Counted from the first letter of the stretch, positions 2,625 to 12,374 are shown. The stretch: 64,000 bases of DNA from Pseudomonadota bacterium (GCA_021325135.1 JAJPHT010000016.1:1-64000); one strand, 5' to 3'. Translations and numbers: made by a program. The notes: generated from the letters alone by a model not told the origin.

Positions 2625-3170
2625 ATGGATGGGATGGAACTGGGCAATCGCGCTTCCGCGATCGAGCGCGACGTCGGCGATCAATCGAACCGCGAGCGCG
2701 TCTATCGCGCGATCGTCGGAAAGCCGGGCATCTCGACCAGCGCGCTGGCCACGACGTTGGGGTTGTGCGTTCCCACCATCGTGTACCATCTGGGCAAGCT
2801 CGAGAACGAGCGGCTCGTGACCCGCGAGAGGTCCGGGCGGACCACCGCGTGCTTCCCCGGAGGATTCCCGCCCCAGGTCAAGGCGGCGATCCGCGCGCTG
2901 ACCGAGCCAGCCACCGTGGCCGTCGCCCGCCAGATCCTCCAGCATCCTTTCATGTCGACCGCCGACCGCGCACGCGCGATAGGGATCACGCCCCAGGCCG
3001 TGAACCGCCAGATCCGAAAGCTCCAGCGCGAGGGCCAGCTGCGCCGCGTCGGCCAGCTTGGCGGCACCCGCGGCCTCGTCCTCACGCGCGAAGCCGAGCG
3101 CCTGCTTGCGGGCCCGTTCGACCCTGGGGAGCCGGCGACGGCCCATGTGCCGAGGGGGGCGCGCGATTGA
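2625..3170 (+). CDS. Tandem winged-HTH transcriptional regulator (ArsR/HTH_24-like, archaeal type)
   Basis: RERVYRAIVGKPGISTSALATTLGLCVPTIVYHLGKLE and a second HTH ARAIGITPQAVNRQIRKL; start uncertain (2514, 2625 or 2634). Confidence 0.85.
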   Translation: MDGMELGNRASAIERDVGDQSNRERVYRAIVGKPGISTSALATTLGLCVPTIVYHLGKLENERLVTRERSGRTTACFPGGFPPQVKAAIRALTEPATVAVARQILQHPFMSTADRARAIGITPQAVNRQIRKLQREGQLRRVGQLGGTRGLVLTREAERLLAGPFDPGEPATAHVPRGARD

Positions 3171-3922
3171 CCCTCGTCCTCTTTCTCCGAAGCGGCGAGG
3201 GGCTCATCGTCTGCGCGGACCGGGACGCGAGCCAAGAGGACCTGCCCGACCTGCGCGCCCCCGACGTTCCCCGCCACCAGGTGCGCCACCATGCGCTGGC
3301 GCCGACGGTCTCAGCGTTCGTGCTTGCCCCCCCTGCGCTGCAGGAGGAGTTCCAGCTCGGGATCGTCGACAACCCCGCTCCCGAGCCTGTCGCCTTCGCC
3401 TCCATGGTCAAGCGCGTCCAGGAGACCGTGGTCGAGTCGCGGGCGCGCGCCCTCAAGCGCCGCGAAGGCTTTGGCGACAGGCAACCATCCCGCATCCCGT
3501 TCCCCGACATCCAAGCGGTGATCGTAGGCTCCGAGGGTGGCAAGACCCGGCTTGTCTACGTCAGCGAAACGGGCGACGTCGAAGACCGCTCGCGGTACGA
3601 GTACGAAGCGCTCGGCGCTCTCGAGTTCTTCGCTCATCTCCACCTCCAGCACTTTCCATACCGCGACGCAGGAGCCGAAGCGCGGGAGCTCATCGCGTTC
3701 ATGGTCTTGGAGGACGTGTGCGACTCGCCTTTCACTCCTCCGCAAGGTCCGCCACGCTTCGCGCTGCGGGGCCCCCCCGTGCTTTGGCGGACAAACCCGC
3801 ATGGTGAGCTCGTGCGCCTGCCACAGGAACGTGTCGTGGAGCTCGCGGCCGAGAGCGCCCGCGTCCGCAGCCGGGTCGCCCAAATCCTGGCCAAGTGGCC
3901 CGCATCCGGGGCGAGCCCATGA
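3167..3922 (+). CDS. Divergent proteasome-subunit/Ntn-hydrolase-like protein A (probably catalytically degenerate)
   Basis: TTG start overlaps the HTH stop (TTGA). (M)TLVLFLRSGEGLIVCADR gives Thr1 and Asp17; VIVGSEGGKTRLVYVSETGDVE..YEALGA fits the proteasome beta-sandwich pattern; no clear Lys33/Gly47. Confidence 0.7.
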   Translation: MTLVLFLRSGEGLIVCADRDASQEDLPDLRAPDVPRHQVRHHALAPTVSAFVLAPPALQEEFQLGIVDNPAPEPVAFASMVKRVQETVVESRARALKRREGFGDRQPSRIPFPDIQAVIVGSEGGKTRLVYVSETGDVEDRSRYEYEALGALEFFAHLHLQHFPYRDAGAEARELIAFMVLEDVCDSPFTPPQGPPRFALRGPPVLWRTNPHGELVRLPQERVVELAAESARVRSRVAQILAKWPASGASP

Positions 3923-4644
3923 CGACCCTCCTCGCGCTGAAAGCCGCCGACGGCATCGTCATCGCGGCGGATGGCGTGGCGAATCGGCCCCTATGGAGCC
4001 CTGACGGGAACCGGTTCACGATACACCGGCCCATGGACAAGGCGATGGTCGTCGGGCGTGACGTGCTGCTCGCGGCTGCCGGGTCCGTCCCGCTCATCCA
4101 AGCCGTCCACGACGCCGTGGAGGGCGCGACGCGCGAAGAAGACGCCGAAGTGGAGATGGTGAGCGCTCTCGCCGCCCGTGAGATGGACCGGTATGCGCGC
4201 GAAGCAGACGCTCGCTACCAGCGGCTCCACCGGACCTCCTCGGCGGGACGCGCGCACGCGGCCCGCATCCTCGTCGGGGGCATCACCCGGGGCCGGACAC
4301 CCACCCTGAAGACGGTGACCCGCGACGCGGAGTCCGCACGCGTCCAGGAAGCTCCCGGGGCGTACGTCGTCATCTCGAACTCATTCCCCTGCACCCAAAC
4401 CCTGACGGATCTCGCGCACCGCTACCATTCCGCCGACCACAGCGCCGACGCGGCCCTTGCGCTCGCCACGGGGCTTCTCGCGGCCCTCCCCGTGCCGTAC
4501 TTCCGCGGTCCCGTCCGGGCCTGGACCTGCACGCACAGCCACCCCGCCGGGGAGGCGCGCGTGGCCGGCCGCGGTCAGAGCCCTCTTGCGCTCGCCCTCA
4601 CGCGTGCGTTCGCCCCCACGTTACCAGTCGAGGTATCGCCATGA
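3919..4644 (+). CDS. Proteasome beta-subunit-like Ntn (Thr) hydrolase B
   Basis: ATGA overlap. (M)TTLLALKAADGIVIAADG gives Thr1/Asp17; in DKAMVVGRDVLLAAAGS the Lys and Gly are 14 apart, like Lys33/Gly47; ILVGGI strand; no propeptide. Confidence 0.8.
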   Translation: MTTLLALKAADGIVIAADGVANRPLWSPDGNRFTIHRPMDKAMVVGRDVLLAAAGSVPLIQAVHDAVEGATREEDAEVEMVSALAAREMDRYAREADARYQRLHRTSSAGRAHAARILVGGITRGRTPTLKTVTRDAESARVQEAPGAYVVISNSFPCTQTLTDLAHRYHSADHSADAALALATGLLAALPVPYFRGPVRAWTCTHSHPAGEARVAGRGQSPLALALTRAFAPTLPVEVSP

Positions 4645-10560: not shown

Positions 10561-10722
10561 CGGCTAGCCTCGGTCAGCGGTGCTGCGCGCTGCGGCGCCA
10601 TCATCGCAGGTTTCGGGGTTCCTCGACGAGGTGTTTGTTCTCCTCCCGGGCAGCCGCGCGTCGGGCGATGTCCCGGTGCCCAAACTTTGATTCCTCACGT
10701 TGGGCATGTCGGGGAGAGACCT

Positions 10723-11634
10723 TTGACTGCGGTCATCGAAGTCGACCACCTGCGCAAGTCGTACGGTGAAAGGGTCGCGGTGCGGGACGTGAGCTTCGCC
10801 GTCGACCGCGGCGAAATTTTCGGGATCCTTGGACCGAACGGCGCGGGGAAGACCTCCACCGTCGAATGCTTGCAGGGTCTCCGCCGCCGCACGGGCGGCA
10901 ACGTCCGGGTTCTTGGGCTCGATCCCGACACGCATGGGAGCCAGCTGCGCGCGCGGATCGGCTCCCAGCTGCAGTCCAGCGCGCTTCCGGCGCGCATCCG
11001 TGTCGAGGAGGCCATGCGGCTCTTCGCCGACCTCGCGCCCTCCGCGGAATCTCCCGACGTCCTTCTCCAGGAGTGGGACCTCAACGGAGTCCGAAGGCAA
11101 GCCTACCACTCGCTTTCCGGGGGAGAGCGTCAGCGGCTCCTCATCGCGCTCGCCCTTGTCAACAGGCCGGAAATCGTGTTCCTCGACGAGGTCACGACGG
11201 GACTGGATCCCGCCGCGCGGCGAAGCGCGTGGAGCATCATCGAGCGCGTGCGGGACCGTGGCACGACCGTCGTGCTCGTCACGCATTACATGGAGGAGGC
11301 GAGGCGGCTCTGCGACCGGGTCGCCATCGTCAACGACGGGCAGGTGGTGGCGATCGATACGCCCAGTGGGATCATCGCGGGATCTCGGCGTCGGGCCGTC
11401 GTTTCCTTCACCTGCCCGTATTCGACGGACCTTTCGTGGCTCACGCAAGTCCCCCATGTCGCCGGGATCGTCCGCGACGGCGACTCGGTCCGCGTCGAAG
11501 GGACGGGCCCGGTCGCCCAGCACGTCGCCAGCGCTCTTCTCTCCCGCGGCATCGAAGTCCCCGACTTCAGCAGCGAGAAGGGCGAACTCGAAGACGCGTA
11601 CCTGTCCATCGTCAAGCAAGGTGCGATCCCATGA
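10723..11634 (+). CDS. ABC-2 exporter ATP-binding protein (second system)
   Basis: TTG start after GGGGAG; GPNGAGKT, LSGGE, FLDEVT, VTHYM. Confidence 0.93.
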   Translation: MTAVIEVDHLRKSYGERVAVRDVSFAVDRGEIFGILGPNGAGKTSTVECLQGLRRRTGGNVRVLGLDPDTHGSQLRARIGSQLQSSALPARIRVEEAMRLFADLAPSAESPDVLLQEWDLNGVRRQAYHSLSGGERQRLLIALALVNRPEIVFLDEVTTGLDPAARRSAWSIIERVRDRGTTVVLVTHYMEEARRLCDRVAIVNDGQVVAIDTPSGIIAGSRRRAVVSFTCPYSTDLSWLTQVPHVAGIVRDGDSVRVEGTGPVAQHVASALLSRGIEVPDFSSEKGELEDAYLSIVKQGAIP

Positions 11635-12374
11635 GCGCGCGCGGATTCGGGACCTTCTCCCTCATTGAATTCAGGCTGCTCCTCCGCGAGCCCACCGTGG
11701 CCTTCTTCACGGTCGCGCTCCCCATCCTGCTTTTCGTCGTCTTCAGCGAAATCTTTGGCAACGCTCCCAATGCGGACACGCCCGGCGCCGGCCAGATCGA
11801 CGCGCACATGGGCGCCTACCTCGCGCTCATGGTCACGAGCATCGGGCTCGTCGCCGTTCCTGCCCGCCTCGCGGGCTACCGGGAAGCGGGCGTCCTCCGA
11901 CGCTTCCGCGCCGCCAACGTCTCTCGCGGCGCGATCCTGGCGTCCCAGCTCCTCTCGACGGCCGTCCTCGCGACGCTCTCCGCCGTGCTCATGGTCGCGA
12001 TTGCATGGATCCTGTTCCGTCCCGCGGCACCCGACAGCCCCCTCCTCGTCGCGGCGGGTCTCGTCTTCGGCACGCTTGTCGCCTGGGCCTTCGGCTGCCT
12101 GCTCGGGGCGATCATGCCGGGCGCGAGAAGCGCGCAGACGCTTGGGCTGGGCATCTACTTCGTGACGCTGCTCCTCGGGGGAGCCGGCCCGCCACGATCC
12201 ATCCTGCCCGCCTTCCTGCGCAGCGCCAGCGACGTCCTTCCCACGACGCACGTCGTGCCCATCATCCAAAGCGCATGGCTGGGCCTGGCCGGGCAGCCCA
12301 TCGAGTGGCTCATCCTTGCCGCGTTCTTGGCGGGCTCCGCAGCGCTTGCATTCGTCTTCTTCCGATGGGAATGA
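11631..12374 (+). CDS. ABC-2 exporter permease (second system, DrrB-like)
   Basis: ATGA overlap; about 6 TM; YREAGVLRRF, LPTTH, C-terminal FFRWE. Confidence 0.92.
   Translation: MSARGFGTFSLIEFRLLLREPTVAFFTVALPILLFVVFSEIFGNAPNADTPGAGQIDAHMGAYLALMVTSIGLVAVPARLAGYREAGVLRRFRAANVSRGAILASQLLSTAVLATLSAVLMVAIAWILFRPAAPDSPLLVAAGLVFGTLVAWAFGCLLGAIMPGARSAQTLGLGIYFVTLLLGGAGPPRSILPAFLRSASDVLPTTHVVPIIQSAWLGLAGQPIEWLILAAFLAGSAALAFVFFRWE

Follow-up and report, generated by a model that had tools for sequence, protein, structure and literature searches.

Linear azol(in)e-containing peptides and thiazole/oxazole-modified microcins (LAPs/TOMMs) such as streptolysin S (SagBCD) and microcin B17 (McbBCD) are peptides that are produced by the ribosome and modified after translation (RiPPs), made by discrete C, D, and B proteins from a leader-core precursor, with a regulator and ATP-binding cassette (ABC) exporters. 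Here, we describe a cluster with the same inventory located at positions 2634-12374 (+ strand) of a 64,000-nucleotide stretch of DNA (GCA_021325135.1, JAJPHT010000016.1:1-64000), the whole of which is called the window. LAP/TOMM clusters usually use CaaX/CPBP, PatA/G, or TldD/E proteases, whereas here a proteasome-like gene or, as in the window, a pair of such genes is found; we name them Ntn-A and Ntn-B (N-terminal nucleophile, Ntn). Archaeal azole clusters are known, namely haloazolisins and thermoacidophisins (PMC4603692), and YcaO clusters were counted widely across archaeal genomes (PMC12144867). However, haloazolisins and thermoacidophisins have Ser-rich or Tyr/Gly-rich cores, whereas the precursors described here contain [C/N]-[H/W]-G units, and the host lineage is, on present evidence, neither Halobacteria nor Sulfolobales.

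TldD and TldE, which form the leader protease of microcin B17, are also two paralogues of low identity, one catalytic and one devoid of the residues, and joint action on a YcaO-modified peptide was proposed for them (PMC5810440, PMC10885120); TldE lost catalytic residues relative to TldD (PMC10885120). They are metalloproteases of another fold, whereas here an Ntn threonine fold is encoded in the cluster and the heteromer is putative. Anbu is likewise a proteasome-β homologue without an AAA+ partner, and its operon was proposed to make and cut a peptide (PMC5666114). Anbu is encoded together with an ATP-grasp protein, a transglutaminase, and Alpha-E, and no substrate of it is known, whereas the Ntn genes are accompanied by YcaO, E1, and SagB and by a gene for a candidate substrate. 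None of the Anbu partner genes was found in the six loci described below. The orphan homologues WPH, PHI, ACC, and PMI (PMC8665760) share fold and triad with the Ntn proteins, and by their published structural description, which was used for the comparison, a helical extension that follows H1/H2, together with a C-terminal helix, recalls PHI, WPH, and ACC. A census of proteasome homologues found no gene context suggestive of function (Fuchs, Alva, and Lupas 2021; PMC8665760), whereas the Ntn family has a fixed context. Connectase, a monomeric ligase, is devoid of H1-H2 and carries two inserted helices between S3 and S4, in contrast to the Ntn-B model, which has H1-H2 and no such insertion.

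A 2023 review of RiPP proteases lists cysteine, serine, and metalloproteases along with two minor types, and the words threonine, Ntn, and proteasome are not used in it (PMC10885120); the string 'proteasom' was not found in the TOMM survey (PMC4603692). Keyword searches of the literature, which did not cover most subscription journals and MIBiG, retrieved no azole cluster with a proteasome-like enzyme. Within the literature searched, the statement of an earlier note on this DNA, which knew of no described YcaO cluster with such a pair, therefore holds: the azole-RiPP core is already known, and the proteasome-like accessory enzyme is of a previously undescribed kind.

Results

Conservation of the Ntn genes next to the azole genes

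In the window, Ntn-A (3167..3922) and Ntn-B (3919..4644) directly precede the genes of an E1/ThiF-like C protein (4641..5810), a YcaO D protein (5815..7242), and a SagB-type B protein (7253..8152), all on the + strand. A search with YcaO revealed its three nearest relatives, 49-51% identical, in loci L016, L017, and L018. All three have Ntn-A, Ntn-B, and E1 ahead of YcaO and SagB after it, and their Ntn orthologues are 23-34% identical to the Ntn proteins of the window. Since YcaO similarity was the sole basis for choosing these loci, the test of synteny is not circular. One further protein, in L019, came from a deep HMMER search with Ntn-B. The L019 contig carries the winged helix-turn-helix (wHTH) gene, Ntn-A, Ntn-B, and E1, after which it ends; a weak match of the HMMER search, P0013, is a tricorn/PD40 repeat protein and was dropped. 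Genome G006, from the same family and another genus, harbors an ABC permease gene, a single Ntn gene, E1, and YcaO (36% identity), with SagB on an overlapping contig. In all five loci carrying the pair, start and stop codons of Ntn-A, Ntn-B, and E1 overlap or nearly abut. Beyond the window, synteny of the Ntn genes is thus seen with E1 in five loci and with YcaO in four of them, the contig of the fifth (L019) ending before YcaO. The earlier note had named a lack of synteny with YcaO homologues elsewhere as a refutation of its idea, and this check came out in favour of the idea. These findings strongly imply, as the earlier note had proposed, that the two genes have a function in the pathway, and the Ntn genes very probably are a working part of the system.

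A reciprocal check was carried out in four overlapping samples of the phylum comprising 401, 197, 37, and 401 genomes. Matches were obtained only in the window's genome (G000), in G006, and in G078, the genome of L017, and always inside such a cluster; G078 belongs to a different class of the phylum than the window genome. A pattern scan of genome contigs returned only the genome of L017 and distant YcaOs, and no match came from such scans in JGI metagenomes, viral contigs, and plasmids. Word-seeded searches with Ntn-A or Ntn-B alone yielded only self-matches; the relatives were found via YcaO and HMMER. Furthermore, Ntn-A identities rank with YcaO identities (Spearman 0.81, six non-independent pairs). 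The more distant YcaO-E1-SagB locus L015 (G012:C107:10800-15182) has no Ntn gene in the DNA examined. Together with L013 (G006:C420:139-1296), it represents two further unrelated YcaO loci in the archaeal order, for which no precursors were found.

Fold and kinship of Ntn-A and Ntn-B

The sequence of Ntn-B alone matches PF00227 weakly (E 6e-4), and that of Ntn-A does not match it. An AlphaFold model of Ntn-B built with six relatives reached a pLDDT of 79, and Foldseek aligned it to proteasome subunits with E 2e-10. Comparison with proteasome subunits gave Z 20-21 at a root-mean-square deviation of 2.7-4.0 Å over 175-200 residues (VIA); Z was 20 for Anbu, 15 for HslV, 13 for BPH, and 13 for connectase. 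In the model, H1 spans residues 57-70 and H2, which is long, residues 78-104; S3 and S4 are not separated by a helical insertion. The Ntn family has a long extra helical segment after H1/H2 plus a C-terminal helix, and a propeptide is absent. Ntn-A was linked to proteasome-domain clusters by its ESM Atlas features (0.96) and to the Ntn-B family by HHalign (probability 98.8, E 4.5e-17); judged by sequence, it is a paralogue of Ntn-B. The proteasome-β fold that had been claimed for both genes is therefore found again, for Ntn-B by model and Foldseek and for Ntn-A, indirectly, by ESM Atlas and HHalign. A single-sequence AlphaFold model of Ntn-A was poor (pLDDT 42). Ntn-A and Ntn-B may bind each other; prediction of the complex gave a score of 0.28 (mark 0.32).

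In a phylogenetic tree, the 11 Ntn proteins form one clade (100/100) apart from housekeeping α and β subunits; the Ntn-A copies are monophyletic (100/100), and the Ntn-B copies were not resolved. Assignment as a housekeeping 20S β subunit was rejected: TIGR03634 reached 15.4 bits at a cut-off of 224, the Ntn proteins are 9-20% identical to the host's own proteasome subunits and form a separate clade, a propeptide is missing, and Ser129 and Asp166 are unconserved in Ntn-B.

Catalytic residues

Residues were numbered by alignment to the host β subunit. The triad T1/D17/K33 and G47 form the catalytic centre of the proteasome fold (PMC8665760). Thr1, Asp17, Lys33, and Gly47 are present in five of five Ntn-B copies and also in the single form of G006; in the L016 copy, the Thr is found four residues inside the called start. 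Ntn-B is hence a probable catalytic threonine peptidase. The first residue of Ntn-A is Thr or Ser, Asp17 is mostly kept, and an acidic residue is found near position 166; four orthologues begin with Met-Thr/Ser, and the gene's TTG start is in register with these starts. Position 33 is occupied by R, R, L, V, and K, so that Lys33 is present in only one of the five copies. Ntn-A of the window, which has kept Thr1 and Asp17, has lost Lys33 as well as Gly47 and is a probable non-catalytic partner. All Ntn-A copies share an invariant R-x-x-Y-x-S-E-x-G-D-x-E-D loop, which also occurs in the single form and is eroded in Ntn-B. This loop aligns to the region of β Asp114, a residue that in the proteasome helps to form the substrate cleft of the neighbouring subunit.

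An unsplit Ntn gene with the full catalytic set is located at L014:1744-2451 (- strand), which is part of G006 (contig C419), ahead of E1-YcaO. The encoded protein contains both residue sets and Gly-Ser-Gly at positions 128-130; its first 75 residues are nearer to Ntn-B, and its invariant loop is nearer to Ntn-A (0.55 vs 0.39). Because the single form carries the residue sets of both A and B, duplication and division of labour are suggested; in the simplest history, one self-sufficient Ntn gene would have been duplicated to give a catalytic B and a supporting A.

Azole machinery

The E1 protein matches ThiF (PF00899, E 5e-17) and, above cut-off, the TOMM leader-binding model TIGR03882. The residues that serve adenylation in MoeB are missing from it, namely the SNLQRQ segment, the Lys, and the Asp in the DCTDN motif, and the zinc CxxC pairs are retained, as expected for a scaffold; it was assigned as the cyclodehydratase scaffold. 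An N-terminal RiPP recognition element (RRE) is probable from position and pattern, with no match to an RRE model. YcaO matches PF02624 (E 2e-59) and, marginally, TIGR03604 (220.3 bits, cut-off 219.25); it is the sole YcaO in the host genome, and its closest solved structures are MusD, LynD, and TruD. Azoline-forming YcaOs usually end in a terminal Pro. The C-terminus of the window's YcaO (7225-7242) and its orthologues reads Pro-His-Thr/Ser, and Pro-Tyr-Ala in G006. The flavin mononucleotide (FMN)-dependent dehydrogenase SagB matches TIGR03605 with 130 bits (cut-off 78.4). The cluster thus has a SagD-type YcaO, an adenylation-less E1 C protein, an FMN B dehydrogenase, and a leader-core precursor, and with three TOMM models above their cut-offs the LAP/TOMM machinery that had been read from E1/RRE, YcaO, and SagB is well founded.

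The usual pathway peptidases had been stated to be missing, and family scans agreed: no other peptidase family was matched among the cluster genes, and no C39 domain was matched on either ABC exporter ATPase. Furthermore, TldD/E was not found in the 94%-complete host genome.

Precursor peptides

A 34-aa precursor gene (10380..10484, + strand) is preceded by a GGTGA ribosome-binding site and encodes a leader with an IEDL motif and a single short Cys/His/Trp core, in which four Cys, two His, and two Trp are arranged in C-H-G, C-W-G, and C-H-N units. A leader-motif pattern built from the precursors described here matched one short open reading frame (ORF) in the 3.77-Mb genome, namely this gene. 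Homologous precursor genes are located directly 5′ of Ntn-A, three in L017 and one in L016; none was found for G006, the assembly of which is fragmented, nor for L018 and L019, where the contigs end. The five precursors share the leader start x-[I/V]-E-[D/N]-L and the [C/N]-[H/W]-G core units. Cys (window) or Asn (others) stands before each His-Gly or Trp-Gly, in 11 of 11 repeats, which are not independent, and the next residue upstream varies. An aliphatic residue stands just before the first core Cys/Ser in four of five precursors, and this border is a plausible cut site. The three tandem precursor genes of L017 (L017:6302-7036) show heptad repeats on N-H-G and short C-terminal tails; they possibly encode multi-core or poly-ring peptides.

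For the window peptide, conversion of Cys to thiazole is the plain expectation. In the orthologous peptides, rings could arise from Ser/Thr or from Asn, and since Asn stands there in place of Cys, the label azole may misfit some members of the cluster family. In the Spy pyrimidone pathway, reportedly described by Pei et al. in Nat Chem Biol in 2025, a complex of RRE, YcaO, and dehydrogenase is said to cyclise Asn to a six-membered ring with the help of His, and the follower is reportedly removed by a separate esterase-type enzyme, SpyE, which is not an Ntn protein. The orthologous precursors have N-H-G where the window has C-H-G, a likeness that serves as a lead only. That the orthologous YcaOs cyclise the Asn of N-H-G units where the window YcaO cyclises Cys appears doubtful.

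Operon layout

The operon comprises, in this order, wHTH, Ntn-A, Ntn-B, RRE/E1, YcaO, SagB, ABC, precursor, and ABC; all genes were found on the + strand in the order that the earlier note had given. Its claim of tight spacing stands for genes 1-8, which overlap or are ≤10 nt apart, and for the exporter ATPase/permease genes, and fails around the precursor, which has gaps of 137 nt upstream and about 240 nt downstream. Overlaps of 4 nt occur at the three junctions wHTH/Ntn-A, Ntn-A/Ntn-B, and Ntn-B/E1; gaps of 4 nt and 10 nt separate E1 from YcaO and YcaO from SagB, and the SagB stop abuts the ABC start. Third-position GC of all operon genes is of coding type (0.82-0.89; precursor 0.86).

The first gene encodes a double winged-helix regulator with matches to HTH_24/MarR and HVO_0163-type proteins; its start was set to 2634 (2634..3170), with alternative starts at 2514 and 2625. 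A homologue (35% identity) stands ahead of the Ntn pair in L019 and a divergently oriented one in L016. The two ABC-2 exporters consist of an ATPase (8153..9139) and a permease (9136..10242), both assigned by family match, and of a second ATPase (10723..11634) and permease (11631..12374). A promoter/terminator scan of the cluster gave no signal above chance; downstream of the precursor, a stable hairpin with a trailing T-run (10512..10561, + strand, z -2.3), which was missed by the terminator scan, is a probable terminator or mRNA stabiliser.

Host genome and flanking DNA

Contig C35 of a genome of 3.77 Mb with 72% GC begins with the window. The host is an archaeon, and the DNA probably originates from a soil metagenome. 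Since the housekeeping proteasome β has its best solved match in Thermoplasma acidophilum and YcaO is rare in the phylum of the window genome according to the genome collection, the phylum is probably Thermoplasmatota, in line with the host suggested earlier, on indirect evidence. The NCBI label of the L017 assembly, Halobacteriales, was set aside, as the genome collection places L017 in this same phylum, and the rarity of YcaO there is at odds with Halobacteria. Elsewhere, the host genome encodes a complete canonical proteasome with two α and two β housekeeping subunit genes. The two β genes are arranged in tandem (G000:C49:12553-13753) and are 75% identical to each other.

Contigs of the probable source run span the cluster with zero differences and no allelic variation, and short sequence pieces from a second study match it nearly letter for letter; mis-assembly is therefore unlikely. 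Positions 1-535 of the window are 90% identical to G000:C29:1-538, both being contig starts, probably due to a duplicated gene that broke the assembly.

The cluster was not found in four genomes of the same genus (86-99% complete), which contain no YcaO and no non-ABC DNA match. Its GC content is 0.66-0.70, as compared to about 0.72 for the genome, and it is bracketed by inverted imperfect palindromes of 85 bp resembling miniature inverted-repeat transposable elements (MITEs), located at 675..759 (+ strand) and 12648..12731 (- strand) and 95% identical. One or two more copies exist in the genome (G000:C39:25606-25678) and one in a congener (G002:C118:12467-12564); no transposase was seen near the palindromes. 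Patchy presence, lower GC, and flanking palindromes suggest that the cluster was recently acquired. In the region 12700-16500, GC falls to about 0.60, and a 502-aa tetratricopeptide repeat protein (13788-15296) and short ORFs are found; the foreign island therefore seems to reach beyond the right repeat. The gene at 897-2060, encoding a predicted lipoprotein of 387 aa without known family, lies between the two palindromes but was rejected as part of the cluster: it belongs to a multi-copy family with several paralogues in the host genome that is also present in four of four same-genus genomes lacking the cluster.

Discussion

The system is real, rare, and conserved, and its function is inferred here from the evidence given above. 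We favour, with somewhat more than even confidence, a RiPP pathway of the linear azol(in)e type that has a threonine peptidase of its own, derived from the proteasome, for trimming leader or follower. The RRE-E1 scaffold would bind the short leader, a role established for the enzyme class. By established chemistry, YcaO would cyclodehydrate core residues with ATP and SagB would oxidise the products, in the simplest case from Cys to thiazole. Loss of the initiator Met would expose Thr1 of Ntn-B, which might then cut off the leader and possibly also a short C-terminal follower. Ntn-A would be a mostly non-catalytic partner shaping the substrate cleft, as TldE does for TldD, and the ABC-2 exporters would secrete the product and protect the cell. 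The pair itself may descend, as residues and tree suggest, from duplication of one self-sufficient gene still present in G006. A maturation role is proposed because no other peptidase is found in the cluster and no TldD/E in the genome.

Several points weigh against this proposal. The peptidase role of Ntn-B is deduced from sequence and predicted structure. Ser129 and Asp166, which assist catalysis in the proteasome, are not conserved in Ntn-B, and the window's Ntn-B is the most diverged copy (branch 1.79) and is missing Gly128. Ntn-B identities track those of YcaO only weakly (Spearman 0.46), and all loci share one origin, which means long retention under selection, not repeated recruitment. 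Leader removal could also fall to a housekeeping protease, the host proteasome among them. Finally, Anbu was proposed as the peptidase of a peptide-synthesis operon and no substrate was found (PMC5666114); given this precedent, an intact triad does not imply a detectable substrate.

Alternatively, the pair might confer immunity by degrading or soaking up the finished peptide inside the producer. The same synteny would be seen in this case, the erosion of Ser129 and Asp166 would suit a binder, and peptidase-type immunity is said to occur in other RiPP clusters, for example with MccF of microcin C. However, ABC exporters, the usual means of self-protection, are already present, the leader would be left without a protease as no TldD/E was found, and the Ntn genes are coupled to E1-YcaO and not to the exporters; immunity is therefore unlikely.

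Similarly, an acyl-enzyme at Thr1 of Ntn-B might be resolved by an amine, so that the enzyme would act as a transpeptidase or macrocyclase cyclising or joining core units, comparable to connectase or PatG. Connectase is a ligating relative of proteasome β (PMC7980362), two paralogous peptidases recall PatA/PatG (PMC4603692), and the heptad repeats and short C-terminal tails of the L017 precursors resemble multi-core or follower designs. Yet, judged by Z, the fold is nearer to proteasome and Anbu (20-21) than to connectase (13), H1-H2 have been kept, a conserved recognition sequence is missing beside the repeats, and the window precursor is a single short core. We regard such an activity as rather improbable.

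Proteasome subunits serve as resistance genes in clusters for proteasome inhibitors (PMC8597713), and the host has a canonical proteasome; thus the peptide might inhibit the archaeal 20S proteasome and the pair provide a resistant substitute, like inpE for fellutamide. A drop-in subunit is very unlikely because of the low identity to the host subunits, the missing propeptide, the extra helical segment, and motifs that differ from those of housekeeping β.

The Ntn genes might also be mere passengers, orphan proteasome-like genes on a mobile island without a role in the pathway. The patchy cluster, its lower GC, and the MITE-like repeats would fit, and orphan proteasome homologues are common (PMC8665760). 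But the genes occupy the same place and frame in six loci from at least two classes despite divergence to about 30% identity, and the genomes searched contained none of them outside the cluster; this explanation is strongly disfavoured and has hardly any chance of being correct. A ubiquitin-like system, in which a small modifier would be activated by E1 and processed by the Ntn pair as its peptidase, is an idea suggested by an E1-fold protein adjoining proteasome-fold proteins in an archaeon. It is extremely improbable, as E1 has no MoeB adenylation residues and matches the TOMM leader-binding model and none of the loci showed a ubiquitin-like gene.

In evolutionary terms, chances appear balanced that an archaeal YcaO lineage domesticated a proteasome-β homologue as a RiPP maturase and split it into catalytic and non-catalytic subunits with the substrate encoded next door. 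If so, this split would be a small independent replay of the proteasome α/β split. The single and split Ntn forms allow testing how a homo-oligomeric Ntn enzyme becomes a pair of a catalytic and a non-catalytic subunit, and the old proposal that peptide-synthesis pathways were served by early relatives of the proteasome can be put to the test. With this system, an orphan proteasome homologue acquires a candidate for its natural substrate, such as Anbu and the 22 families of the 2021 census do not have. If the proposed role is true, threonine/Ntn enzymes would be a new protease class for RiPP maturation, and the cluster points to products of a little-studied archaeal phylum.

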